Assembly (NCBI GenBank): GCA_036378855.1
Contig: DASUVR010000139.1
Span: 1-44,583, forward strand
Source: Gemmatimonadales bacterium
GTDB taxonomy: Bacteria; Gemmatimonadota; Gemmatimonadetes; Gemmatimonadales; GWC2-71-9
Length of the DNA stretch: 44,583 nucleotides
Direction of reading: 5' to 3'
Part shown: piece by piece, positions 87-12,328 of the stretch
Layout of the letters: each line of letters begins with the position of its first letter
Position numbering within the stretch: the first letter of the stretch is position 1
Notes under the pieces: generated by a model
What the model saw: the letters and a program-made list of their open reading frames with translations, nothing else
The model's database searches: none
Told to the model about the DNA's origin: nothing
Program-made: the position numbers and the translations under genes

Positions 87-980
87 TCACCCCTTCTCCA
101 CCGGCAGCCGCACCGCGTTTCCCCACTCGGTCCACGAGCCATCGTAATTCCGCACGTTGTCGAAGCCGAGCAGGTAGGTGAGTGCAAACCAGGTGTGCGA
201 CGACCGCTCGCCGATCCGGCAGTAGGCGATGGTCTCCGCGTTGGGGCGAAGACTGTTGTCCTGCTCGTACAGCTTCCGGAGCTCGCTCGCGGACCGGAAT
301 GTGTGCGTATCCGGATCGATCGCCTTGGCCCAGGGGACGCTTTTTGCGCCGGGAATATGCCCGCCCCTGAGGCAGCCTTCCTGCGGATACTCCGGCATGT
401 GGGTCTTTTCTCCCCGGAATTCCTCGGGACTCCTGACATCCACCAGCTGACCCTTCTTCTTGAGATGGGCCAGCACGTCCTCCCGAAAGGCCCGGATCCG
501 GGAGTCGTCCCGCTCTCCCACCGTGATGTTGCCCTCGCGGTACTTGGTCCGATCGGTTGACAGCGGACGGCCCTCATCGATCCAGCGGAGCCGGCCACCG
601 TCCATGACCTTTACGTTCTTGACCCCGAAGAGCTGCAGGACCCAGAGCGCGTAGGTCGCCCACCAGTTGTTCTTGTCGCCATAGAAGACGATGGTGGTGT
701 CATTGTCGATGCCCTTGGAGCGGAGCAGCTTCTGCAGCCGGTCGCGATCGATGTAGTCCCGGATCACCGGGTCGTTCAGGTCGTTGGTCCAGTCGATCTT
801 CACCGCCCCGGGAATGTGCCCGGTGTCATAGAGCAGCAAATCCTCATTCGACTCGATCAGCCGTACCTTGGGATCCTCCAGGTGCTGCGCCACCCACTCG
901 GTGGACACCAGCACCTCCGGATGAGCGTATCCTCGCTCCTCGATCGGAGTGACGGAGGGAGCGGTTTGCACCGGCGTCAT
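87..980 (-). CDS. Thiosulfate/3-mercaptopyruvate sulfurtransferase (tandem rhodanese domains)
   Basis: 297-aa ORF with two rhodanese modules. Catalytic loop '[13 protein letters not shown]' (CRxGxRS) lies near the C-terminus. AAGGAG sits 6 nt upstream of the ATG at 980. Confidence 0.9.
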
Positions 981-1189
981 AGCAGTCTCCTTGGTAAAAA
1001 GCTCGCGTGCTGCCTGTCAGAAATGGAACCGGCCGCTGACCTCGGAAGAGGTGCGGCCGGCGAGAAGTCCTGATCCTGTGCCACTGGTCAATCTCGGGCG
1101 CCGCCCCCTGCTCGCGTTGTTCGAGCGTTGCTACAGCAACAGGAGGACAGAGAGCGGAGCTGCCAGAGGACGGGGTTCACCCGAAGAAA

Positions 1190-2710
1190 TTACGACCTGA
1201 TCTGTCGGGATGTCAAATGCAGTTCCTTGGTCCAGCCCGGGACCAGGGGTGCCAGCAGCAGCAGGTAGAGGGCAAAGGCCAGGGCGGTCGACCGAAAGTC
1301 CAGGCCGGGCAGCACCTGTCCCACCAGTCCTACCGCCGTGGTGCACCACACGAGAGGGAGGAGAATCGTGGCCACAAACCGGCCCGGCTCGGCAACGCCG
1401 GCTTCCCGCACATTGAGCCGCAGCACCAGTGCGGCGAACACCAGGTGACCGGCAAAGGTAGCGGCAGCAACCGAGCCCAGGCCGTAGCCACTCGCAAGCG
1501 CCACGATCGAGAGCGCAAACGTGAGAACCAGCGCCGATCCCGCATACAGAGGGAGCCGCCGCTGCCGGCCGGCGGCCACTGCCCCGATCGAGGCCAGGTT
1601 CACCAGGCCCATGGCCACCCCCGAGAGGAGAAAGACTCGACCCGGCGCGATTGCCTCGCGATAGGTGGGCACCGCGTGCAGCACCAGCGGCCCCAGAGCG
1701 AGGCTCAATCCGCCCAGAAGCGGGGGCAACAGACGGGCATATGGCAACAAGGCCCGCTCGAGGTGAGACTGCAGTGCGGCTGCCGCTCCGTTGGAGCTGG
1801 TTTCTCCGTACACCTGAGGAAACACCACCGTGCGAACCACCATCGCCAATGCGGCCGCGACTGTGGTTACCGATCCGGCAAATGCGTAGTACCCGAGCAT
1901 GGTCGAACCGCCCCAGATCGCCACGACCCAACGGTCTCCGGTCCCCAGCGCAATCCCCGCGGCCATACTGAGCACCACCGGCAAACCGATCTCCAGCATC
2001 CGCCGCACCCGCTTCGGATCGATGGTGGGCCGGAGCTCCAGCCAGCGTGACGCGGCAGCGATCCCCAGGAGGTTGGCCAGGGTGAGGCCCATGATTGCGC
2101 CCCCCAGGCCCCACACCGATGCCAGCGCGACGGCGCAGACCACATGCAGCACCGCAGTTCCGGACTCGAGCAGAGAGTACAGCCGGAGACTGCCGCGGAC
2201 CCGGGTGCACACGAGAGCGTAGCCGAAGAGAGCTTCCGCCAGCCCGGCGGCAGCAAAGCCTCGGAGCACCACCCGGTTGGCCTGATCATCTACCAGAAAC
2301 GAGATGGTAAGAGCGACTAGTGCGACACTACCCGACAACAGCAGCACGAAGCCGAGCGCCGCAGGCGCAAACGTACCCGGTACCGCAGGCGATCGTCCCT
2401 TTCTGCGCAGCAGCTCCAGCTCGAGGCCGCGGTAGACGCTGAGTCCGACCAGCGAGGAGTAGCGCATCACCAGTCGGAGCAGGGCCCACGTGCCGAACGC
2501 CGCCGGTCCGAGGAGCACGGCCAGCAGCACCCCTCGAATCGCCAGCATGACCTCCGCCGTTCCGCGGAACAGGGCGTAGCCCATGATCCTGCGGAGAACC
2601 CGGCGCTGAGTCGGCGGGACGGCGCGCTCGCCCGATCCGGCGAGGGGCAGGTTGGAAGTTGTCAGGAGGTCACCGGCCGCTGGGAGTGAACCGGGCGTAG
2701 GTGCGGCCAA
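1190..2710 (-). CDS. MOP-superfamily oligosaccharide/polysaccharide flippase (Wzx-like)
   Basis: 506-aa ORF that is hydrophobic throughout (about 12 or more helices) with Arg-rich loops. Last gene of the 9692->1190 operon. Start uncertain: TTG 2710 (41-nt overlap with the upstream gene) or ATG 2584. Confidence 0.7.
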   Translation of the reverse strand: MAAPTPGSLPAAGDLLTTSNLPLAGSGERAVPPTQRRVLRRIMGYALFRGTAEVMLAIRGVLLAVLLGPAAFGTWALLRLVMRYSSLVGLSVYRGLELELLRRKGRSPAVPGTFAPAALGFVLLLSGSVALVALTISFLVDDQANRVVLRGFAAAGLAEALFGYALVCTRVRGSLRLYSLLESGTAVLHVVCAVALASVWGLGGAIMGLTLANLLGIAAASRWLELRPTIDPKRVRRMLEIGLPVVLSMAAGIALGTGDRWVVAIWGGSTMLGYYAFAGSVTTVAAALAMVVRTVVFPQVYGETSSNGAAAALQSHLERALLPYARLLPPLLGGLSLALGPLVLHAVPTYREAIAPGRVFLLSGVAMGLVNLASIGAVAAGRQRRLPLYAGSALVLTFALSIVALASGYGLGSVAAATFAGHLVFAALVLRLNVREAGVAEPGRFVATILLPLVWCTTAVGLVGQVLPGLDFRSTALAFALYLLLLAPLVPGWTKELHLTSRQIRS

Positions 2711-3335
2711 GCAGCTGGGTGAAACGGATCTCTCCGATCAGCCGAGTTCCTGCGCCGGTCTTCTGCACGGTGCGCAGCGAGGGCGCGTTGGTTGGGGCCA
2801 CCATCCGCCAACCCTCTCGGAACCCGCTCTCCCGCGCCAGCCGGAGCCGGCCCGACGCGAGGGCCGACCCGATTCCGCTGCTTCGCTCCGAGGGGAGAAC
2901 GTAGAGGTTCAAGAGGTATGCGGCGCTGGATGGAAACTCGAGCGGGAGGGGCGACACCGCCACGTCGGGACCGAGATCGTCAGCCACCCAGGCGTAGCCG
3001 ACCGGGGTTTCTCCCCGCCAGGCCACCAGGCAGCGACGGCCTCGAGCGGCCAACGCGCGGAAGCGCTGCAATTCCCGCCGACCCACCAGTGAGGAAAGCC
3101 GAGCCCACTCCGCGGCTGTCGGCTGGGTGATTCGCACTCCAGCTGGAGGAGGGAGATCCACCATCTGCTCCACCTGGTGAGCAAAGACCAGCAGGTGGCC
3201 GCGGCGAAAGATCCGGTGCAGGGAGCGGCTGGCTGCCGCCTTCCAGGCGCCGGTCCATCCTTCATGCCGGTACGCCAGCAGGGCGTCGCCGGGGAGCGTT
3301 TTCAGGTCGAGCCAGTACGCGCCGAGGCGGCTCAT
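2670..3335 (-). CDS. GNAT-family acyltransferase, paralogue B
   Basis: Trimmed to ATG 3335 (MSRLGAYW...). C-terminal GNAT core 'LLNLYVLPSERSSGIGSAL' (R/QxxGxG/A acyl-CoA motif). N-terminal 'LPGDALLAYRHEGWTGAW' is shared with the neighbouring gene. ATGA overlap with the upstream stop at 3332-3335. Confidence 0.7.
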   Translation of the reverse strand: MSRLGAYWLDLKTLPGDALLAYRHEGWTGAWKAAASRSLHRIFRRGHLLVFAHQVEQMVDLPPPAGVRITQPTAAEWARLSSLVGRRELQRFRALAARGRRCLVAWRGETPVGYAWVADDLGPDVAVSPLPLEFPSSAAYLLNLYVLPSERSSGIGSALASGRLRLARESGFREGWRMVAPTNAPSLRTVQKTGAGTRLIGEIRFTQLLGRTYARFTPSGR

Positions 3336-4015
3336 CGGGCCAGACTGATCTCGATCGGGACCGGAGCACTCAGACTTCGGGACCAGCTCCGCATCCAGGA
3401 CAGGACCTTGAGCCGGCCCACGGTGCCCACCACCCGGCTCGGAGCCACACTCGCGACCGTTCGGATGGAGACGAAGTTGTTCCGATGAATGATGATCCAG
3501 CTGCGGTGGAAGCCTCGCTCCCGGCACAGCTCCAGACCGCGACTGAGCAGCGCGGCGCCCAGCCCTTCACTGCGCTCGCTCCGGGCCACTTCGATTTGCC
3601 AGACATAGACAGTGTCGGCCGGAAGCGAGAGGTCATAGCTCTCATGCCGGCTCTCGATGGCGGGCGAAAACCAGACATAACCCACCGCCTGCCGGCGCTT
3701 CCAGGCAATGAGGCAGATCCGCCCCGCTTCACTCGCCTGGGCAAACTGTTGCGGCCTCCGGCTCCGGCCCATGTTACCCAGGAGCGTCCAGTCGGGTCCG
3801 GTGAAAGGCCTGATATCCACCTCCGGTGGAAGCTCTGCATTCACCAGCCGGTGGAGGTCGGTCTCGATCAGGAAACGGCGCGCGTAGCCGCCCAGACGGC
3901 CCAGCGTTCGGCGGCGCATTTCCTGTTTGAGGCCGGCCCAGCCGCCGGTCCGCCAGGCGCGGAGAGCGTCGCCCGGAAAACTTTTCATGTCCTGAATGTA
4001 TTTCGCGAGGTTCAT
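3332..4015 (-). CDS. GNAT-family acyltransferase, paralogue A
   Basis: Trimmed to ATG 4015 (MNLAKYIQDM...). GNAT core 'VWQIEVARSERSEGLGAAL'. N-terminal 'FPGDALRAWRTGGWAGL' is paralogous to 2670-3335. ATGA overlaps at both ends. Confidence 0.7.
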   Translation of the reverse strand: MNLAKYIQDMKSFPGDALRAWRTGGWAGLKQEMRRRTLGRLGGYARRFLIETDLHRLVNAELPPEVDIRPFTGPDWTLLGNMGRSRRPQQFAQASEAGRICLIAWKRRQAVGYVWFSPAIESRHESYDLSLPADTVYVWQIEVARSERSEGLGAALLSRGLELCRERGFHRSWIIIHRNNFVSIRTVASVAPSRVVGTVGRLKVLSWMRSWSRSLSAPVPIEISLAR

Positions 4016-5013
4016 TCGCCGGCGTACACCCGTAGATCTGCTCCGCTCTCGGCCAGCACCGGTTGCTGAGCGAATGCTTGCCGCACAGCATCGGAGCCCA
4101 CCCACACGGCGGCCACCAGCGAGAGAGGATCGGGAATGGGACTGAGCCCCCAGCCTCGTTTGAACTGCTGCAGACCGTCGTGAACGAATGGGCCGGTGCG
4201 TCCCGCATCGAAAACCCGGTAGCCCTGGGCCCGGGCCCATTCGATGGTGAGGGCAAAAACCGCAAAGCCCGCCTTTTGGCGCATCAAGCTCGGATCTCCT
4301 TCGCGGACTCCTGAAATCGCTCCCCACAGCGTGTCGCCCCGGGGTACCGTGCATATGCCCGAGAGACGCTCGCCCTGCCGGGTGATGAAGTGCAGCACGC
4401 CCACCCGAGAGAATTCATCCATCAGTTGCTGCGAAGGGATCCAGGCCCCGGACCCATGCCGAGCCAGCGCTTGAGGCCGGACCATGGTCTCGAAGAACTC
4501 CTTCCAGTCGGCCGCCGAGCCTGCTTGCTGCAGCTCGAAGTTCTGCCGCTTCATCCTGCGCAGGTTCTCCCGCAGGCCGTGGCTGCAGTCTTTGGGCGGC
4601 AGTTGCGCCAGCTCGCCTTGCCATCTGACTGACTGGGGCACGATGACCCATCCGGCCCGGCGGAACCGGGGTGCCATCCAGCGGTGCACCTCGGCCAGGA
4701 CGATGTCTGCTGCAGCACCCTCGGTCACGGCTGCCGGGCTCCAAAGTGCGCGCCGCATCTCCCGGACTGGCGGGGGTAGCTCGCCCAGGACTCTGCTACC
4801 GATGGGACGCAGCAACTTCTCCCGACCGACCTCGATGAGGCTGATCGAATTCCCGGCCACATGGACCTGCCGCCGCCGCACGTCGCCGGTCAGCTGCAAC
4901 GGCAGGGCCATGCTGCGGTGGGCCAGGACCGGAGCCCGTCCCCACCGCGAAGTGTACGTGGGGACCAGCAACCGCTCCTCAACCAGACTGACCAGTGATC
5001 GAGTATGACTCAC
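4012..5013 (-). CDS. FemAB-like / Acetyltransf_6 (BioF2-like) GNAT-fold acyl- or aminoacyl-transferase
   Basis: C-terminal half '...GFAVFALTIEWARAQGYRVFDAGRTGPFVHDGLQQFKRGWG' matches the FemAB-related EPS-locus acyltransferase pattern (fDfGr...KxxWG). Start taken as GTG 5013, forming GTGA with the BKACE stop. Alternative start is ATG 4911. Confidence 0.65.
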   Translation of the reverse strand: MSHTRSLVSLVEERLLVPTYTSRWGRAPVLAHRSMALPLQLTGDVRRRQVHVAGNSISLIEVGREKLLRPIGSRVLGELPPPVREMRRALWSPAAVTEGAAADIVLAEVHRWMAPRFRRAGWVIVPQSVRWQGELAQLPPKDCSHGLRENLRRMKRQNFELQQAGSAADWKEFFETMVRPQALARHGSGAWIPSQQLMDEFSRVGVLHFITRQGERLSGICTVPRGDTLWGAISGVREGDPSLMRQKAGFAVFALTIEWARAQGYRVFDAGRTGPFVHDGLQQFKRGWGLSPIPDPLSLVAAVWVGSDAVRQAFAQQPVLAESGADLRVYAGE

Positions 5014-5939
5014 CCCGCGATTGCCTCCTCGGCTTCGTCGAGGACGATGGAACAAGGCAGCGCGGCCGGAGCCATCGGGGCGCTGCCGAGGCCCAGCATG
5101 GTGCGGGCGCGAGCAGGTGACGCCAGAGTCCGCCCGAAGGTCTCCGCCAGCAACGCCAGCCGGTCCATCAAACCGCCGTTTGTGGCCAGCTCGCTGCGAT
5201 CGTACACCAGGTGAATGTTGTCTTCCAGGCCAACCCGGCAATGGCCGCCCATGGCCAGAGCCAGGGTGTTCATCGGGAGCTGGAACAGCCCGATACCGGC
5301 CGCGGACCAGACTGAGTTGGGAGGAAGATCCTCCACCATGTTCGAGAGGTGGCGGGCGGTTGCCGGCACCGAATAACGGGACCCCAGCAGCAGATTGAAA
5401 TACCACGGGCCCCGCCCCAGCATGCCCTTGCTCATGAGAAACTTGGCCGCGTTGATCATGCCGAAATCGAAGCACTCCAGCTCCGGCTTGATGCCGTGAT
5501 TCACCATCTTCTCCGCCAGCGCGATCACCATGTCGGGTGAGTTCTGGCTGGTGCCCGTAGGGAAATCGAGCGACGTCATCGTGAGGCTAGCCAGATCGGG
5601 CCGGGCCAAGCCGCTGAGCTCGAGAACCTCGCTTCGGCGCTCGAATTCGGGAAAGTTCCTGCCGCTGCAGCTCACGCAGATGATGGCGTCCTCGGAGTGG
5701 CTCCGGATTCCTCGAATCATCTTCTCGTAGATCTCGCCCCGGTAGCTCGGAGTTCCATCCTCTTCTCGTGCGTGCAGGTGCACGATGGCAGCTCCGAGAT
5801 CGAGGGCACGACAGGAATCTTCGATGACTTCCTCGGGCGAGATCGGAACATGGGGCGTCATCGCCTTGGTCGGGATCATCCCGGTCGGACAGAAGTTGAC
5901 GATCAGCTCGGGGTAAGGCGTCAGCGGAAACGGCTTCAT
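5010..5939 (-). CDS. Beta-keto acid cleavage enzyme family protein (BKACE / DUF849; 3-keto-5-aminohexanoate cleavage enzyme-like)
   Basis: Trimmed to ATG 5939 (MKPFPLTPYPELIVNFCPTGMIPTK...). Family signatures 'NFCPTG', 'IVHLHARE', 'ELECFDFGM' and 'HCRVGLEDN' are all present. Confidence 0.85.
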   Translation of the reverse strand: MKPFPLTPYPELIVNFCPTGMIPTKAMTPHVPISPEEVIEDSCRALDLGAAIVHLHAREEDGTPSYRGEIYEKMIRGIRSHSEDAIICVSCSGRNFPEFERRSEVLELSGLARPDLASLTMTSLDFPTGTSQNSPDMVIALAEKMVNHGIKPELECFDFGMINAAKFLMSKGMLGRGPWYFNLLLGSRYSVPATARHLSNMVEDLPPNSVWSAAGIGLFQLPMNTLALAMGGHCRVGLEDNIHLVYDRSELATNGGLMDRLALLAETFGRTLASPARARTMLGLGSAPMAPAALPCSIVLDEAEEAIAG

Positions 5940-7183
5940 GGCATGTCTCTGCCGAAGGGGGTGGGAATGGGAGCGGGCATCGGTTGAATCCGCTGGCGGA
6001 CTTCTTCCATTTCGCGGCCACTGCGGACTTCCTGGGCCGCCTTCTTCAGCGTGCCGCTCCACTGAGCCAGAAACGGCACGGGATCGGCCGGGGACCATAC
6101 TGCATCGATCCAGGGCCCGGTGTAGCCACGAAGGAATTTCTGCCAATTCCAGTCAGGGCCGCGCTCCTGCACCGCGGTGTACAACAGGTCCGCGTGCAGG
6201 TGCAGCCAGGTGCCCCGCCAGCCGTTGGAGGAGGCACTCACCCGCTGGCGCCGGGCGTGCTCCTGCCAGATCAGGAGCGGATAGTTGACCCCGCAGCGGG
6301 TTGCCAGCGCGTGGCTGAGATAACAGCGCCCGTTGATCTCCATCAGCTTGAAACGGCCACCCCGCGGATCGCGCTTGTACTCCGCGCTGGCAACACCCCG
6401 CCAGCCGATGCGCCGCAGCAGCTCGATGGTGGGCTCGCGCAGCTCCGGGACGGTCGCCGGCTCGGCGGCCCGCGCCACCCCGAAGAACGAAGGCGCCTTC
6501 CTCAATTTTCGGAAGCCGAATTCGGCAGCCGGTTGACCCTGCCGGTCCAGATACACGGTGTAGTTGTAGAACTCGTCATCCGGGCCCGGCACCAGATCGA
6601 ACACGTCGGCGGCAAGGCCGGCTCGCTCGATCTGGTCGATCGCGGCAACCAGCTCCAAGGGGCTCCGGACAACGATCAGCTTCTTGCCCAAACGCTCCCA
6701 GAAGGCCGCGCTCACCTGCGGCTTTACCACCACCGGATAGCTGATATCGGTTCGCTGGGCGGTCACTCGAGAGGCGGGGCCGTAGCAACGCGGCACCGCA
6801 ACGCCTGCTTCACCGGCCAGCCGGTAGGTGTTCGGCTTCACCACCACCCGTCGGACAACCTCGGGTTCGGGGACCGAAAGCGGATACCACCGGGAGAGCA
6901 GCTCCCGGTGCTCCGCCAGGGCGGTAAGGGCGTAGTCATTGGTGGGGATCAGAGCCCAGCCGCGCCACTCGCTCGCGCGATCCTGCAGCAGGTCGATGAG
7001 CCCGTCGGGCCGGCGGTGCAGGTCGAAAACCCGATGCGCCTCGTGGGCGTAGCGGGAGTGATGCGCGATGTCGTGAGGCTTGGTCAGCACCACAGCCGTG
7101 CGCACGCCCGCACGCGCCAGACTTCGGAGTGCGCTCACGCCATTGGCGTAGCCGCCGATGACAACAGCACCCGGTGTGGTCAA
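5936..7183 (-). CDS. ATP-grasp carboxylate-amine ligase (COG3919-type)
   Basis: Sequence '...AVVIGGYANGVSALRSLARAGV...YPVVVKP...FKLMEINGRC' shows the pre-ATP-grasp Rossmann-like N-terminus plus the ATP-grasp core. Start taken as TTG 7183, forming TTGA with the upstream stop. Confidence 0.8.
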   Translation of the reverse strand: MTTPGAVVIGGYANGVSALRSLARAGVRTAVVLTKPHDIAHHSRYAHEAHRVFDLHRRPDGLIDLLQDRASEWRGWALIPTNDYALTALAEHRELLSRWYPLSVPEPEVVRRVVVKPNTYRLAGEAGVAVPRCYGPASRVTAQRTDISYPVVVKPQVSAAFWERLGKKLIVVRSPLELVAAIDQIERAGLAADVFDLVPGPDDEFYNYTVYLDRQGQPAAEFGFRKLRKAPSFFGVARAAEPATVPELREPTIELLRRIGWRGVASAEYKRDPRGGRFKLMEINGRCYLSHALATRCGVNYPLLIWQEHARRQRVSASSNGWRGTWLHLHADLLYTAVQERGPDWNWQKFLRGYTGPWIDAVWSPADPVPFLAQWSGTLKKAAQEVRSGREMEEVRQRIQPMPAPIPTPFGRDMP

Positions 7184-8463
7184 CTCAGCGGCTCGACCAC
7201 GCGAAACTTGGCCTGCGGACCGGTCGGGAGCCGGTCCACGAATTCGACGTCGGCTTCGAGAAAAGATGCCACGTTGTAGCGCAGCGCGGTGCGGACCTGG
7301 GATGTGACCAGACTGCGGTCGGCCGCCGATTCCAGTATGGCCCGGACCCTCACTCTGGCCTGATCCAGCTGGCTCACCTGGTAGCGCAGCAGCCCGGGGA
7401 TCTGCTCGATGGCGCAGGTCAGCGCGTAGGGAGAGATCCGAAGTCCACCTCGCATCACCAGCACATCCGATATCCGGCCGGTCACCAGCCCGAGCAGCGG
7501 CATGGGACATCCGCAGCTACAGCGGTCGGCTCGCAGACTGCCCCGATCCCCGGTACGGTAGCGAAGCAGGGGCATGGCCCGGTTCACCAGGACCGTGGCC
7601 ACCAGATCGCCCTCCACTCCGTCGGGGAGGATCCGGCCGGAGTCGTCCACCGCCTCGAGGTGCACCACATCGGAGTTGATGTGCCGGTTGCCGGCCGGGC
7701 ACTCCCATGCGATTTCCTTGGTTTCCGAGGTCCCGTACACGTCGTACACCGGCGCGTGGAATGCGGCCGAGATCTCGGTACGCGCTCCGCCCTGCAGCAG
7801 CTCGCCGCTGGTGAAGACGGCGCGAACTCTCACCTTCTCCCCTTGGCTATGCAGGAGTCGTCCCGCCTCTTGCAGAGCCGAGGGCAGCCCATACACCACG
7901 TCGGGCCTGAAGCTCTGGAGTGCGGCCACCAGCGATGCCGTCGGCTGAAATACGCTGATCCGCCGCCAGCGTTCCCAGCTGGGCATCATCGAGCCCTGAC
8001 CTGCCGGCGTAGTATCCAGCAGGGCAACCCGGTCGGTCACCCGAACTCCGCACGCCGCTCGGGCTCGCAGCTTTATCAGATATTTGAGCCGCGCCCATGC
8101 GCGGGCCTCGTAGTACACCCGGAACGGCTCACCGGTCGAGCCTGACGATGACGAGGAGTACCATTCCCGGTTCAACCGCCCGCCATCGAACTTTTTCAGG
8201 CCGGCGCGTCTGAGCTCGGCCTTGGACACCAGCGGAAGCGCCGCCAGGGCGCGATAAGGCTCGCGCTGCAGCACCGGGTCCGCCCATTCGATGCCGGCCG
8301 ACTGAAGCCGTCGCCCATAGAAGGTGTTGTTCCGCGCCACGTGAAAGAGCAGCCGGCTGAGCCGGTCCCGGGCGACGGAAGCGATCCAGTCCGGCTCCTG
8401 CCGCAGCATGCCGAACGTGCTGGGCCCGTCCACCGCCAGCCAGAACAGAGGCGGCCGGCTCAT
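7180..8463 (-). CDS. Adenylate-forming enzyme, phenylacetate-CoA ligase / CapK / F390-synthetase family (COG1541)
   Basis: Trimmed to ATG 8463 (MSRPPLFW...). AMP-binding loop 'SSSSGSTGEPF', 'DVYGTSE', 'YRTGDRG'. ATGA overlap with the GT4 stop. Confidence 0.85.
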   Translation of the reverse strand: MSRPPLFWLAVDGPSTFGMLRQEPDWIASVARDRLSRLLFHVARNNTFYGRRLQSAGIEWADPVLQREPYRALAALPLVSKAELRRAGLKKFDGGRLNREWYSSSSSGSTGEPFRVYYEARAWARLKYLIKLRARAACGVRVTDRVALLDTTPAGQGSMMPSWERWRRISVFQPTASLVAALQSFRPDVVYGLPSALQEAGRLLHSQGEKVRVRAVFTSGELLQGGARTEISAAFHAPVYDVYGTSETKEIAWECPAGNRHINSDVVHLEAVDDSGRILPDGVEGDLVATVLVNRAMPLLRYRTGDRGSLRADRCSCGCPMPLLGLVTGRISDVLVMRGGLRISPYALTCAIEQIPGLLRYQVSQLDQARVRVRAILESAADRSLVTSQVRTALRYNVASFLEADVEFVDRLPTGPQAKFRVVEPLS

Positions 8464-9692
8464 ACCGTGCTCACCGCGGTGGCCCGCGCTGTCCGCAATA
8501 CGGCCGGTGCGGTCATCCTGTGCCCCAGAGCCTCGTACACGGCGAGATACCGCGTGGTGGCCTGGGACCACTCCAGGTCTGCCTCCGCCTTGGCCCGGTT
8601 TCGGATGCTCATCAGTTGCCGGAGCTCCGGGTCCTGGCCCAGGTACTGAATGGCCCGCGCCAGCGCGAGCGGCTGGCCGGGATCGATCAACAGACCATTG
8701 ACGCCGTGTTCCACCAGCTCCGGGATGCCACCCACCGTACTGCCCACCACGGGGAGGCCAGAGGCCAGCGCCTCGGCGAACACATTGCCGAAAGCTTCCG
8801 CCGACGAGGGAAGAGTGAAGAGGTCGGCCGCACGGTAGCGCTCGGCGACAGCCTTGCGATCGAGCGACCCGGTAAAGCGGATCGCCGAGCCCACCCCCAG
8901 ACTCGCAGCCAGCCGCTTCAGCTTCTCACGGTCAGGACCATCACCCACGACCTCTAGCGCAAAGTGCCCTCGAGGCAGCAGTGCAAACGCGCGAATGAGC
9001 TCCCCCAAACCCTTGCGCTCGACCAACCGAGCCACGGCAAGGCATTGGATGAGACCATTGCCCCGAGCGCGACGTGCCCCTGCGCCTGCCGCAGGGTGGA
9101 AGAGCTCGAGATCGACCCCGTTCGGGATCACCGTGTATCCCAGAGTGGGAAGGGTACGCTGGGCCAGTTGGCCGAGACTGTCGCACACCGCAACAACCCT
9201 GCTCGCCCGACGCCAGATCCAGCGGGTGAGCGGTGCGAGCAACCGGTGCATCTGCTGCATCGAACGGTGGTATGGGTCATAGCCGGGAACGTCCGAGCCG
9301 CGCAGCGAAAGCACGACTGGGGTTCCTCGAGGCGCGGCGAATGGCAGCAGCGCGCCAGTGGGAAGCGAGAAGAAGACGTGAACCGCGTCGTACTCCAGGG
9401 TACGAACCAGCCGGCGCACCAGAGGAAACGCATGGAGCAGGTAACTCGCGGCGCCGAGCATGCCGGCCTCGTGCACTCCAACGCGCCGGCTCGGCACCCG
9501 ATAGATCCGGAGTCTGCCCTGCTCTTCCAGCTCGGCTGAGCCTGGCGGGGCGGATTTCCCGTCCGAGCAGCCCGAGGTGACCACATCTACGTTCACGCCG
9601 CGAGTCACCAGACCATTGGCCAGCGCGGCCGTCGCTACCCCAGCGCCGCCACCCAGCGGGGGGTACTCGTAGTTCAGGATCAGGACCCGCAT
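8460..9692 (-). CDS. Glycosyltransferase family 4 (GT-B, Glycos_transf_1)
   Basis: N-terminus 'MRVLILNYEYPPLGGGAGV' and C-terminal 'PSSAEAFGNVFAEALASGLPVVGSTVGGIPELV' (EX7E region). Start ATG 9692 (GGAG 9 nt upstream). Alternative start is ATG 9737. Confidence 0.9.
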   Translation of the reverse strand: MRVLILNYEYPPLGGGAGVATAALANGLVTRGVNVDVVTSGCSDGKSAPPGSAELEEQGRLRIYRVPSRRVGVHEAGMLGAASYLLHAFPLVRRLVRTLEYDAVHVFFSLPTGALLPFAAPRGTPVVLSLRGSDVPGYDPYHRSMQQMHRLLAPLTRWIWRRASRVVAVCDSLGQLAQRTLPTLGYTVIPNGVDLELFHPAAGAGARRARGNGLIQCLAVARLVERKGLGELIRAFALLPRGHFALEVVGDGPDREKLKRLAASLGVGSAIRFTGSLDRKAVAERYRAADLFTLPSSAEAFGNVFAEALASGLPVVGSTVGGIPELVEHGVNGLLIDPGQPLALARAIQYLGQDPELRQLMSIRNRAKAEADLEWSQATTRYLAVYEALGHRMTAPAVLRTARATAVSTV

Positions 9693-9982
9693 CTCGAGCT
9701 GCTCCAGGGGGAGAGAGACGAGCGGTACCTTGCCCATCCGCCATTAGCGGCGGGCTACATCCAGTGTGTCGGAAATGCGAAGAAGTGCGCGGCGTCCGGG
9801 GGGCAAGAGGCAAGCCAGCCTCAGATCCTATGTGCTGACTACTGCAGGATTTGTCTCGGCCAGCCCAAGCTGTTGCTGGACGAACTGTTTGGCGGGTCTT
9901 TCAGAGGTGATTGGGCCCGGCTGGCGTGTGGTCCGGCTCCCCGTCCTGTAGCGGCCCGGCTACAAGGAATTGGTAGCGGCGG

Positions 9983-12328
9983 TCACATTTGAAACAGGTA
10001 GCTGAGCTTGAGGAAAAATCCATCTTCCGCGCGTTGGAGCGTGGATTGCCCCATCTCGGTCGGATCTCTGAGTGTGCTGCCGTACCCGGCAAAGAGTACG
10101 GTTCCCGGGGTAGGCTGGTAGGAGAACAGAAAATCACCCCGGAAGGAGCGGTGGCCAAAGGGACGGGTGCGGGTGTACAGGTTGGTTATGGGATCGAACA
10201 CCAGAATCGGAGCGTTGGTTCGAGACTCGTCCCGCAAGGAGTCGCGCCGTTCGGTGGTGTACTCGCCCACCACCCGAAGAAAGATCGGCCGGGAGAGCTG
10301 ATATTCGATCTTGACCCGCGGACTTCTCCAGATACTCACCGTGCTGCCGTCAGTCCGCCGGCCTACGAACTGGAGGTGGTACTCTCCATTTACCCGGAGC
10401 TGGTCGGTGGGCCGCCAATCGAGGACCAGGTCGAGCCAGGTGATGTCGGCACTGGCCCATTCGTAGAAGTTTTCGTCGTGACCCCAGAGAAAGAAAATGT
10501 TTCCCGAGAAATGGGAGAACTCCGGCGAGTCGAGTGAAAGCACGTAATCGAGGTTGGGGATGGTCGGTTGGCCGGTGAACGGAATCGTGTCCAGCCCGCC
10601 GGCGCCAGCGGGCACCTCCAGAGCGTAATCGGCGTAGAGATCGGCCGGGTACCCGAACGACTCCGTCAGCACCGAGGCCCCGAACTGCCAGCCTCCGCCG
10701 AACCGGGTGTTGGTGTTGAAGTGCAGCTTCTTGTCCTGAATCCCTCCGCCGTTCACAAACTTCTGATATTCCCAGGTTCCGTCCAGCGCCACGTCTCCGG
10801 TAAAGCTTTCGAACCAGCTCCCCTGTTTGCCGTAGGCAGTGATGCTGTGATCCAGATTCGTATGCACGATGCCGGCCCGCTGAATGAATCCGCTGGCGGC
10901 GCGGAAATCATTGGCCACGCCGGCAAAGGTGTAGCGCGCTCCGAAGGTGCGGCCGTTTCGGGCCAGCCGGGAGGACCAGAGCGGCCCGGTTTCGGTCACG
11001 CCTCCAACCCGGGTGCGGCTGCCCGCCACCTGAAGCTGGGCACTGTAGATGTCGCCCATGACCAGTCGGGTATCGACCCCGGCCACCCGGTTGTAGTCGC
11101 GACCTACGACCTTGTCGGTGTACACCACGCCGAGCCGCGACTGCGAGCCGACATCGCGTTGAATTCGGAGCAGGTTGTACAGCGGATGATCCTCACCGGT
11201 GGGAGAAACGGCAGGATCGTCCAGCGCCGAGAGCACCGCCAGGTCGGTTCCGAACGCCTTTCCGGTGAGCTTGGCGGCCACAACCGGCTGCACGATCCGC
11301 CTGGTGTAGATCAGGTTGCTGGGCGTGGAGAATTGCTCGATTGCCTCTAGAAAAAACGGTCGCTTCTCCTGAAAGAAGAGCTCGTTGCGCGGGTCGAACA
11401 CAAACTGTTGGGCGTCGGATTCAATCTGGGAGAAATCCGGGTTGGCGGTTCCGTTGAGCGTCAGGTTGTTGGTAACCCCCCAACGGACGGTGCCACCCAG
11501 CTCCGGGCTGCCGCCGCTATAGCTCCACCCGCCGGTTCCGTCGGCTCCGGTGGTTCTTGAGGTCAGAGATGGGGTGAAGTCGAGCACCACCCCGCGCCGC
11601 AGGTCGGTGAGACCTACGAGCTTGCCCGACTGGCGAAGGAAGGAGGCGCTGGCCCGCTTGGCCGGCGTCCAGCTGTCCTCCCGGCCCGAATGCTGGACCA
11701 GCCGCACAACGTTGATGCCCCAGACCTGCTCCTGTTTGGGCTGGAAGCGGATGCTCTTGAAGGGAATCCGGATCTCGATCTCGTATCCGTACTCGGTAAC
11801 ATGGCCCTTGGATTCGAACACATAGTCAGGGCTGAGGTCTGCCTGCTCCCGCTTTACCACAGCGCTGTTGAAGCCGTTTCCGCTGACCGACCCGGTCTCT
11901 ACCAGCGCCCCGTCAGATTGAACTCCGAGGGGATTCACCGCAAAGACCAGCGCCTGGCGGCTGTCGTTGAAGGTGCTGAGCAGGATCTGGATGTAATCGT
12001 CCGCCGCGATCTTATCCCGATCCGCCAGCGTGGCGTGCACCGGCCCATGCGCCTCGAAGGCACGCACGCCGAAGTGGATCGCGGTGGGAGAGTACCAGAC
12101 CAGCACCTGGGTGGTATCCGCGGCCGGGATTCCATCCGTGGGAGAGAACTGGGAGAAACCGGTCAGCACCGCCGACTCGCCCCACACGGCCTCCGTCAGC
12201 TTCCCGTCCACCGACAGGTCGGCCTCCAGCCGGGGGATCCGTACCTCCACCTGCCCCGCCCGGCCGCTGTACACGGCAGGCGGATCGGTCATTGTCCAGG
12301 TGGTGAGGAGGGCTAGCGCCAGCAGCAT
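9983..12328 (-). CDS. CBM9-like / DUF5916 family envelope protein (probable outer-membrane beta-barrel with N-terminal carbohydrate-binding module)
   Basis: 781-aa ORF. N-terminal 'DGKLTEAVWGESAVLTGFSQFSPTDG' is CBM9-like. The long Gly/Tyr/Phe-rich alternating C-terminal region is beta-barrel-like. The signal peptide is short and atypical (MLLALALLTTWT). Confidence 0.6.
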   Translation of the reverse strand: MLLALALLTTWTMTDPPAVYSGRAGQVEVRIPRLEADLSVDGKLTEAVWGESAVLTGFSQFSPTDGIPAADTTQVLVWYSPTAIHFGVRAFEAHGPVHATLADRDKIAADDYIQILLSTFNDSRQALVFAVNPLGVQSDGALVETGSVSGNGFNSAVVKREQADLSPDYVFESKGHVTEYGYEIEIRIPFKSIRFQPKQEQVWGINVVRLVQHSGREDSWTPAKRASASFLRQSGKLVGLTDLRRGVVLDFTPSLTSRTTGADGTGGWSYSGGSPELGGTVRWGVTNNLTLNGTANPDFSQIESDAQQFVFDPRNELFFQEKRPFFLEAIEQFSTPSNLIYTRRIVQPVVAAKLTGKAFGTDLAVLSALDDPAVSPTGEDHPLYNLLRIQRDVGSQSRLGVVYTDKVVGRDYNRVAGVDTRLVMGDIYSAQLQVAGSRTRVGGVTETGPLWSSRLARNGRTFGARYTFAGVANDFRAASGFIQRAGIVHTNLDHSITAYGKQGSWFESFTGDVALDGTWEYQKFVNGGGIQDKKLHFNTNTRFGGGWQFGASVLTESFGYPADLYADYALEVPAGAGGLDTIPFTGQPTIPNLDYVLSLDSPEFSHFSGNIFFLWGHDENFYEWASADITWLDLVLDWRPTDQLRVNGEYHLQFVGRRTDGSTVSIWRSPRVKIEYQLSRPIFLRVVGEYTTERRDSLRDESRTNAPILVFDPITNLYTRTRPFGHRSFRGDFLFSYQPTPGTVLFAGYGSTLRDPTEMGQSTLQRAEDGFFLKLSYLFQM

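Follow-up and report, generated by a model that had tools for sequence, protein, structure and literature searches.

What does an enzyme of the BKACE (DUF849) family do in the middle of an operon of surface-glycan type? The question is raised by P0001, a gene in a stretch of 44,583 nucleotides from an uncultured Gemmatimonadales bacterium (assembly GCA_036378855.1, contig DASUVR010000139.1, positions 1 to 44,583), which we refer to as the window. We think it probable, with some reserve, that the enzyme supplies a non-standard acyl-coenzyme A (acyl-CoA) for the N-acylation of a glycoconjugate, so that its Zn-dependent beta-keto acid cleavage would be biosynthetic rather than catabolic. In the scheme that we propose, the BKACE would convert a beta-keto acid and acetyl-CoA to acetoacetate and the non-standard acyl-CoA, and the latter would then serve as donor for the co-inherited CoA-dependent acyltransferases that the operon encodes, namely the GNAT protein called GNAT2 here and possibly a FemAB-like protein of GNAT fold. 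These transferases would N-acylate an amine on a glycoconjugate started by a family 4 glycosyltransferase (GT4). PaaK/CapK-like and ATP-grasp ligases would extend this glycoconjugate with amide-linked residues, and a Wzx-type flippase would export the product in this strain. Acyl-CoA supply is the most economical interpretation because GNAT and LbH transferases consume acyl-CoA, a canonical BKACE makes one, and the pairing of BKACE with acyltransferases recurs: it is found with non-homologous transferases, in separate phyla, and as gene fusions. The gene at issue is the following:

5010..5939, minus strand: BKACE (DUF849) gene P0001, 309 aa, recognised by its PF05853 match, its residue map to the enzyme Kce and an AlphaFold2 model.

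An earlier note on this DNA, made from the letters alone, had described a 309-aa product that carries four BKACE hallmark motifs and whose start and stop overlap the neighbouring genes. Each of these observations is borne out by the present analysis. The motifs NFCPTG, HLHARE, ECFDFGM and RVGLEDN lie at residues 15-20, 54-59, 155-161 and 235-241, respectively, and the product matches Pfam family PF05853 at E 2e-81, with 273.8 bits (cut-off 24.8), over positions 2-274 of the 274-position profile. On the minus strand, positions 5936-5939 read ATGA and positions 5010-5013 read GTGA. The gene runs from an ATG at 5939 to a TGA at 5010, and its frame is open upstream as far as a TTG at 6146; we take ATG 5939 to be the start because 309-aa orthologues align over 100% of their length. 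The stretch from 5010 to 5939 is a real gene, far above chance expectation, and P0001 is the sole BKACE in the source genome. Searches of solved structures by sequence returned 3NO5 as the closest match (E 1e-50, 37% identity), with Kce structure 2Y7D at E 3e-45 and the enzyme BsfD at E 4e-36. The structural model that the earlier note had called for was built with AlphaFold2 from 44 homologues and scores 94.6 in the predicted local distance difference test; by Foldseek, both 3NO5 and Kce structure 2Y7F superpose on it with a template-modelling (TM) score of 0.94 and a root-mean-square deviation of 1.5 A, which identifies the fold as a (beta/alpha)8 barrel.

Is the active site intact? The earlier note had regarded the loss of Zn or catalytic residues on careful alignment as fatal to its proposal, and no such loss was found. 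Residues of P0001 were mapped to Kce by sequence alignment (chain positions in 2Y7D equal the native Kce number plus 6), and conservation was scored in 40 Gemmatimonadales orthologues and 112 near representatives. H54, H56 and E239 of P0001 (an H-x-H motif plus the Glu of LEDN) align with Kce H46, H48 and E230, the Zn ligands of that enzyme. The catalytic Glu is E155 (Kce E143) and the Arg is R235 (Kce R226); further pairs are D240 with D231, S90 with S82, and S118 with T106. All eight of these P0001 residues are invariant in 40/40 orthologues, and the Zn triad is also invariant in all relatives tabulated. The roles of the catalytic Glu and Arg have been described for PdKce (E171 and R254; PMC11961710), and the Zn triad pattern has been confirmed for BsfD (bioRxiv 10.64898/2026.01.15.699783). 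Kce also has a Tyr near the CoA sulfur (Y145; Y173 in PdKce).

Around this conserved core, P0001 has peculiarities of its own. D125 (codon 5565-5567) stands where every other BKACE relative tabulated has an Asn, and the Asp is itself invariant in 40/40 orthologues, while R188 and Y189 are common only to the nearest representative, P0122. D125, R188 and Y189 appear in the model to lie at or just past the ends of predicted beta-strands, the site of active sites in TIM barrels. Their unusual identity and position could be taken to mean that the fold is used here for some reaction other than that of a BKACE, such as that of a decarboxylase or hydrolase. The family does have non-BKACE members, groups G6 and G7 among them, and cis-epoxysuccinate hydrolase shares the fold. 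We consider such an activity very improbable, since the loss of one or more catalytic residues is the defining feature of group G7 (Bastard 2014), whereas the Zn triad, E155 and R235 are all invariant among the 40 orthologues.

Placement of P0001 in the family, as suggested at the outset, assigned it to neither of the two NCBIfam equivalogs compared. It scores 238.1 bits against the Kce equivalog NF052387 (cut-off 382) and 207.1 bits against the 3-oxoadipate:acetyl-CoA acetyltransferase NF053568 (cut-off 350). By these sequence scores, P0001 belongs to PF05853 and to no characterised subgroup, falling below all characterised equivalog cut-offs. With the Kce of lysine fermentation it shares PF05853, the TIM barrel (TM 0.94, 34% identity), the H-x-H plus Glu Zn site, the catalytic Glu and the Arg/Asp pair. 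It differs from Kce in its low equivalog score, in its place in the other half of the family tree, in the lack of lysine-fermentation genes in the operon and the window, and at two active-site positions. The first is I22, at the position of Kce Glu14, a residue that binds the substrate amino group; Glu occurs there in 8/112 near representatives, including P0197, whose Kce score of 395.9 exceeds the cut-off of 382. The second is F157, at the position of Kce Tyr145. Reut_A1631 (3NO5) has Phe here as P0001 does, and the two also share a basic residue at 188 and a loop of the form TG-x-[IL]-P-x-K. From it and from the NF053568 type, P0001 differs in having the clade-specific residues C17, C91, D125 and Y189 and in standing in a glycan operon instead of a catabolic cluster.

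The Phe at this position deserves attention because of BsfD. The substrate of this DUF849 enzyme, which belongs to the Burkholderia flavophos cluster (PDB 9ZSC), is a phosphonate beta-keto acid; the enzyme stops after acetyl transfer and carries a loop of ~20 residues with Arg91, and the Phe at its Tyr145 site has been discussed as a possible cause of its non-canonical chemistry (bioRxiv 10.64898/2026.01.15.699783). Like P0001, it is a DUF849 enzyme with Phe at that site and a biosynthetic role, the latter proposed for P0001; unlike P0001, it is surrounded by phosphonate genes and a lumazine synthase gene. One could therefore imagine that P0001 performs non-canonical or reversed chemistry, either a BsfD-like C-acetylation without retro-Claisen cleavage (giving a 1,3-diketone after decarboxylation), or a condensation of an acyl-CoA with acetoacetate to a beta-keto acid that the PaaK/CapK-like or ATP-grasp ligase would attach via its carboxylate. 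Apart from F157, which corresponds to Phe166 of BsfD, this idea draws on the two carboxylate-activating ligases encoded directly upstream in the operon and on D125 in place of the otherwise invariant Asn. We regard it as rather unlikely. Phe occupies the Tyr145 site in 3NO5, 3CHV, BsfD and 101/112 near representatives, and Tyr145 is thus not a strict requirement of the family. F157 was accordingly rejected as a marker of BsfD-like chemistry, Phe being the norm even in P0197, which scores as a Kce equivalog. The BsfD authors, moreover, were unable to show that the Phe causes the changed chemistry (bioRxiv 10.64898/2026.01.15.699783), and P0001 has no counterpart of the Arg91 loop, since it shows no large insertion after strand beta-3 relative to 3NO5 and Kce. 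Finally, GNAT domains consume CoA thioesters, and their recurrent fusion to BKACE is easier to reconcile with a thioester product.

BsfD also bears on the statement in the earlier note that characterised BKACEs are catabolic, which is now out of date. With a biosynthetic BsfD inside the family, and with ObcA/Obc1 as fold relatives, that generalisation needs tempering. ObcA makes oxalate and is treated as a relative in fold, without being given as a DUF849 member (bioRxiv 10.64898/2026.01.15.699783). ObcA/Obc1 (4NNA, 5IKY) and P0001 have the same barrel, and the former are biosynthetic and perform acetyl-CoA- and metal-dependent oxaloacetate chemistry that yields acetoacetate. They differ from P0001 in that the match is distant (E 4e-12 over residues 24-59; TM by target 0.46), in an extra N-terminal domain of ~200 residues, and in the release of free oxalate.

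The context of P0001 is an operon on the minus strand in which all six junctions from GT4 to GNAT2 are 4-nt overlaps, the BKACE gene overlapping both of its neighbours. In order of transcription, with the boundaries of the island last, the genes are:

8460..9692, minus strand: GT4 glycosyltransferase, 410 aa, first gene of the operon; Glycos_transf_1 (E 3e-39) and Glyco_transf_4 (E 7e-22).
7180..8463, minus strand: PaaK/CapK-like adenylate-forming ligase, 427 aa; NCBIfam matches to the DVU_1553 family and PaaK, all below equivalog cut-offs.
5936..7183, minus strand: ATP-grasp ligase, 415 aa, TTG start, a variable island member; weak CPSase_L_D2 (Pfam) and PRK12767-like (NCBIfam) matches.
4012..5013, minus strand: FemAB-like/Acetyltransf_6 protein, 333 aa, GTG start over the BKACE stop; PF13480 (E 7.5e-7, above cut-off).
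3332..4015, minus strand: GNAT paralogue 1, 227 aa, present in part of the loci only; Acetyltransf_1 (E 1.6e-9).
2670..3335, minus strand: GNAT paralogue 2 (GNAT2), 221 aa, the conserved GNAT of the island; Acetyltransf_1 (E 6.6e-9).
1190..2710, minus strand: MOP/Wzx-type flippase, a variable island member with an uncertain start; Polysacc_synt_3 (E 5e-7).
9983..12328, minus strand: DUF5916 protein, conserved upstream boundary of the island, outside the operon core; from orthologous loci.
87..980, minus strand: rhodanese/3-mercaptopyruvate sulfurtransferase-like gene, conserved downstream boundary of the island; from orthologous loci.

In solved-structure searches, the CapK-like ligase matched a set of acyl-CoA ligases, namely PaaK, PaaK-like ligases and 2-hydroxyisobutyryl-CoA synthetase, as well as AjiA1 (E 2e-20 to 1e-11); the same searches returned no match for the ATP-grasp or FemAB-like protein and only weak, unspecific ones for the two GNATs. 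The FemAB-like protein gave weak matches to TIGR03019 and FemX, and its orthologue in locus L001 carries both PF04339 and PF13480. For the flippase, the first in-frame ATG, GTG or TTG is the TTG at 2710, which overlaps GNAT2 by 41 nt, and none lies just past the GNAT2 stop; the 487-aa orthologue in locus L002 implies a start near 2653, and orthologues together suggest 2650-2665. Promoter and terminator scans of the operon gave hits at chance level only. None of kamA, kamDE, kdd and kal was found in the operon or the window, and a genome-wide search for KamA returned just two fragments, at contig ends and both below cut-off.

Is this arrangement peculiar to one genome? The ~45 orthologous loci (72-95% identity to the BKACE) lie at one chromosomal spot, and ~40 Gemmatimonadales loci keep GT4, CapK-like, BKACE, FemAB-like and GNAT genes between DUF5916 and rhodanese. 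Except where a contig end truncates the locus, GT4 and CapK-like genes lie upstream of the BKACE almost without exception, and throughout nearly the whole set of orthologous loci the CapK-like gene immediately precedes either the BKACE or the ATP-grasp gene. Downstream of the BKACE are the FemAB-like gene and a GNAT of GNAT2 type, with GNAT2 orthologues of 42-85% identity in nearly all complete loci. An ATP-grasp orthologue is present in ~11 of the ~45 loci and the flippase in about half. GT4 persists even in the smallest versions of the island; the smallest that bears a BKACE (L022) consists of GNAT, GT4, BKACE and formyltransferase genes, and additional genes are inserted in some islands, amounting to as much as 5 kb of ligase genes in some cases and to a formyltransferase gene in others. 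The conservation of the neighbourhood with GNAT and FemAB-like genes that the earlier note had proposed to look for is therefore borne out, by ~40 loci and by co-inheritance in the genus as described below, and the orthologues sit in the same glycan-type island and not in the lysine or carnitine catabolic clusters that would have spoken against a biosynthetic role. The ATP-grasp ligase that the note had named as a neighbour is not a conserved partner, the steady companions being GT4, PaaK/CapK-like, FemAB-like and GNAT2. On the whole the interpretation in the note is partly supported, and its proposal of an acyl-CoA donor gains independently from relatives in other phyla that adjoin sugar N-acyltransferases and from others that are fused to GNAT or DegT domains.

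Among 101 species of the genus, 44 of them represented by high-quality genomes, the BKACE is patchily distributed (39/101 species; 18/44 high-quality genomes). The FemAB-like gene occurs in 41/101 species, 35 of which it shares with the BKACE, and GNAT2 orthologues in ~40/101, 36 of them shared; the CapK-like gene occurs in 45/101, with 35 shared and ~10 lacking a BKACE. Several of the cases in which the BKACE and a partner disagree lie at contig ends, and because related genomes are not independent all of these counts are descriptive only. The usual companions of the BKACE are the FemAB-like and GNAT2 genes, yet GNAT2 can occur without a BKACE. Islands that lack a BKACE contain GT4 alone (G031, G125), CapK, ATP-grasp, PreATP-grasp and GNAT genes (G019), GT4, two CapK-like, PreATP-grasp, Mur-ligase-like, FemAB_like and GNAT2 genes (G378), or GNAT2 and Wzx in the stretch examined (G322). 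Such varied contents indicate that the island is a mosaic of amide-forming and acyl-transferring modules. The DUF5916-rhodanese interval as a whole (87-12328 in the window; also L083-L085, L091 and L092) is hypervariable in the genus, ranging from a single GT4 to mosaics that include two CapK-like ligases, PreATP-grasp, a Mur-ligase-like enzyme, FemAB_like, GNATs, a formyltransferase and Wzx. A few BKACE genes look interrupted: the tblastn match spans only about half of the query in L052 and L076, and a BKACE paralogue of ~50% identity has one in-frame TAG in each of G038 and G162. These could be pseudogenes or assembly errors.

Does the association with acyltransferases extend beyond the order? 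Relatives of 42-56% identity, whose loci were retrieved with peptide patterns from the query (n=34), are for the most part Bacteroidota; Balneolota, Desulfobacterales and Sericytochromatia contribute one case each, and two Gemmatimonadales paralogue loci (L044, L045) are in the set but lack the cassette. A gene for an LbH sugar N-acyltransferase of the NeuD/PglB/VioB type lies within 7 kb of the BKACE in 27/34 loci, usually directly downstream, and in L058 the two genes overlap. GT2 genes are present in 15 of the same loci and DegT aminotransferase genes in 10, and ATP-grasp ligases and Wzx are also frequent. At the Gillisia hiemivivida locus, the LbH protein matches the NeuD/PglB/VioB type at E 1e-42, the aminotransferase is a WecE-type dTDP-4-amino-4,6-dideoxyhexose transaminase (562 bits against a cut-off of 375), and RmlA is present. 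Bacteroidota relatives at 42-50% identity usually precede the gene of a NeuD/PglD-type transferase, in loci predicted to make a dTDP-4-amino-6-deoxyhexose. Strains in culture that carry the BKACE-LbH cassette include Algoriphagus vanfongensis DSM 17529, Gillisia hiemivivida IC154 and Aequorivita capsosiphonis DSM 23843.

An exhaustive fusion search of 1.8 billion representatives revealed natural GNAT-BKACE, BKACE-GNAT, BKACE-DegT and BKACE-Aminotran_1_2 fusions among the nearest relatives, with the GNAT fusions recurring across several members and contigs and the DegT-fused BKACE gene adjoining an LbH gene. At L087:1311-11739, a GNAT-BKACE fusion of 481 aa directly follows a CapK_C gene; its surroundings look phage-like, with the gene of a 2118-aa FG-GAP/aBig_2 repeat protein next to it and, beyond that, a series of small genes whose matches include Peptidase_M23 and dATP/dGTP pyrophosphohydrolase. 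A BKACE-GNAT fusion of 448 aa at L086:2824-9347 is accompanied by an amino-acid permease, PGA_cap (CapA-like), Asn_synthase-like and unknown gene, with a polysaccharide lyase after them. P0196 and P0219 (742-753 aa) combine a BKACE with a C-terminal Aminotran_1_2 domain, a family that includes the alpha-oxoamine synthases, enzymes that join an amino acid to an acyl-CoA by condensation; if the domain is of that kind, these may be another instance of a BKACE that feeds an enzyme using a CoA thioester. P0169 (817 aa) joins an N-terminal BKACE to a C-terminal aldo/keto reductase domain.

In the family tree, the window clade (support 100) groups with P0122 and the GNAT-fused P0123, and this group is sister (support 89) to a clade of 60 rows (support 99) that holds both the LbH-linked Bacteroidota clade and the DegT fusion; P0197, a Kce by its score, is placed in the other half. 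By its place in the tree and by the acyltransferases of its operon, P0001 fits a provisional grouping of acyltransferase-coupled BKACEs of glycan loci. Putative pocket residues differ between the two clades, with D125, R188, Y189 and H233 in the window clade and N, I, A and G in the LbH-linked clade, which suggests that they handle different acyl groups. To judge from these residues, that of the window clade may possibly be polar or charged.

In one case a GNAT-BKACE fusion is flanked by a thiolase gene on one side and a FadB-like gene on the other, a setting that resembles beta-oxidation, and it raises the possibility that P0001 too is a catabolic or salvage enzyme merely carried in the island and unconnected with the glycan, where it might cleave a beta-keto acid nutrient or recycle a by-product. 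Catabolic roles are indeed those of the BKACEs that have been characterised best, namely Kce and groups G1-G5 of Bastard 2014. For P0001 we nevertheless find this explanation improbable: the gene is translationally coupled to both neighbours, the island context is the same in ~40 loci, related enzymes occupy glycan contexts with non-homologous acyltransferases in another phylum, and P0001 falls below the cut-off of every characterised equivalog. By profile matches, furthermore, the operon has no dehydrogenase, CoA-transferase, transporter or regulator of the kind that is typical of catabolic BKACE clusters. This explanation, a non-canonical chemistry and a non-BKACE activity are all less well supported than the supply of an acyl-CoA.

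Several points also weigh against acyl-CoA supply, in addition to the fusion in the thiolase setting. We infer the function of P0001 from gene context, and we likewise only infer which way the reaction runs, which acyl group is made, which transferase uses it and what the final product is. No gene of the operon is an obvious source of a beta-keto acid, which would then have to be drawn from general metabolism, and the PaaK-like ligase could itself be a source of acyl-CoA. Since GNAT2 is found without a BKACE in G378 and G322, it is not dependent on that enzyme. Related genomes have inherited their synteny in common, the genus counts are therefore not independent events, and the use of peptide patterns taken from the query biases which relatives in other phyla appeared. 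If an acyl-CoA is indeed supplied, its user in the Gemmatimonadales island is most likely GNAT2 and/or the FemAB-like protein. A bolder version of acyl-CoA supply, which we consider quite unlikely, is that the BKACE makes an aminoacyl- or beta-aminoacyl-CoA and that the FemAB-like protein uses this thioester instead of an aminoacyl-tRNA, which would amount to a tRNA-independent, Fem-type assembly of a short peptide or acyl side chain on a surface glycoconjugate; more broadly, the whole BKACE branch would then be an acyl-donor line for glycan N-acylation across phyla. By analogy, an aminoacyl-CoA product would parallel the 3-aminobutyryl-CoA made by Kce.

Are there precedents for such an arrangement? 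The anthrose pathway, AntA-AntD, is a dedicated acyl-donor module beside a sugar N-acyltransferase. The wfpC-wfpG R-group genes of Flavobacterium psychrophilum likewise form an acyl-donor module, beside a PglD-type transferase (PMC6519341). Both resemble the locus described here in that a small module makes an unusual acyl donor for amino-sugar acylation of PglD/GNAT type in a surface-glycan locus, and differ in the enzymes employed, which are acyl carrier protein (ACP), ketosynthase and reductase enzymes or an enoyl-CoA hydratase where we propose a BKACE. The F. psychrophilum O-antigen R-group genes were considered as a possible home of a BKACE, and were found to encode ACP and ketosynthase enzymes instead. 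A literature search combining BKACE, DUF849 or Kce with glycan terms found no paper linking them; two Vibrio parahaemolyticus matches concerned unrelated accessory genes.

The BKACE family is a classic illustration of how much functional diversity can be hidden among related enzymes, and nearly all of its assigned roles are catabolic. If the branch to which P0001 belongs does feed surface-glycan acyltransferases, it would provide a biosynthetic origin for some of the unusual N-acyl groups on bacterial amino sugars, and the combination of a BKACE with an N-acyltransferase would constitute a compact two-enzyme cassette for glycoengineering. Purified proteins, and those cultured Bacteroidota in which the cassette occurs, offer a direct way to test the idea of acyl-CoA supply.

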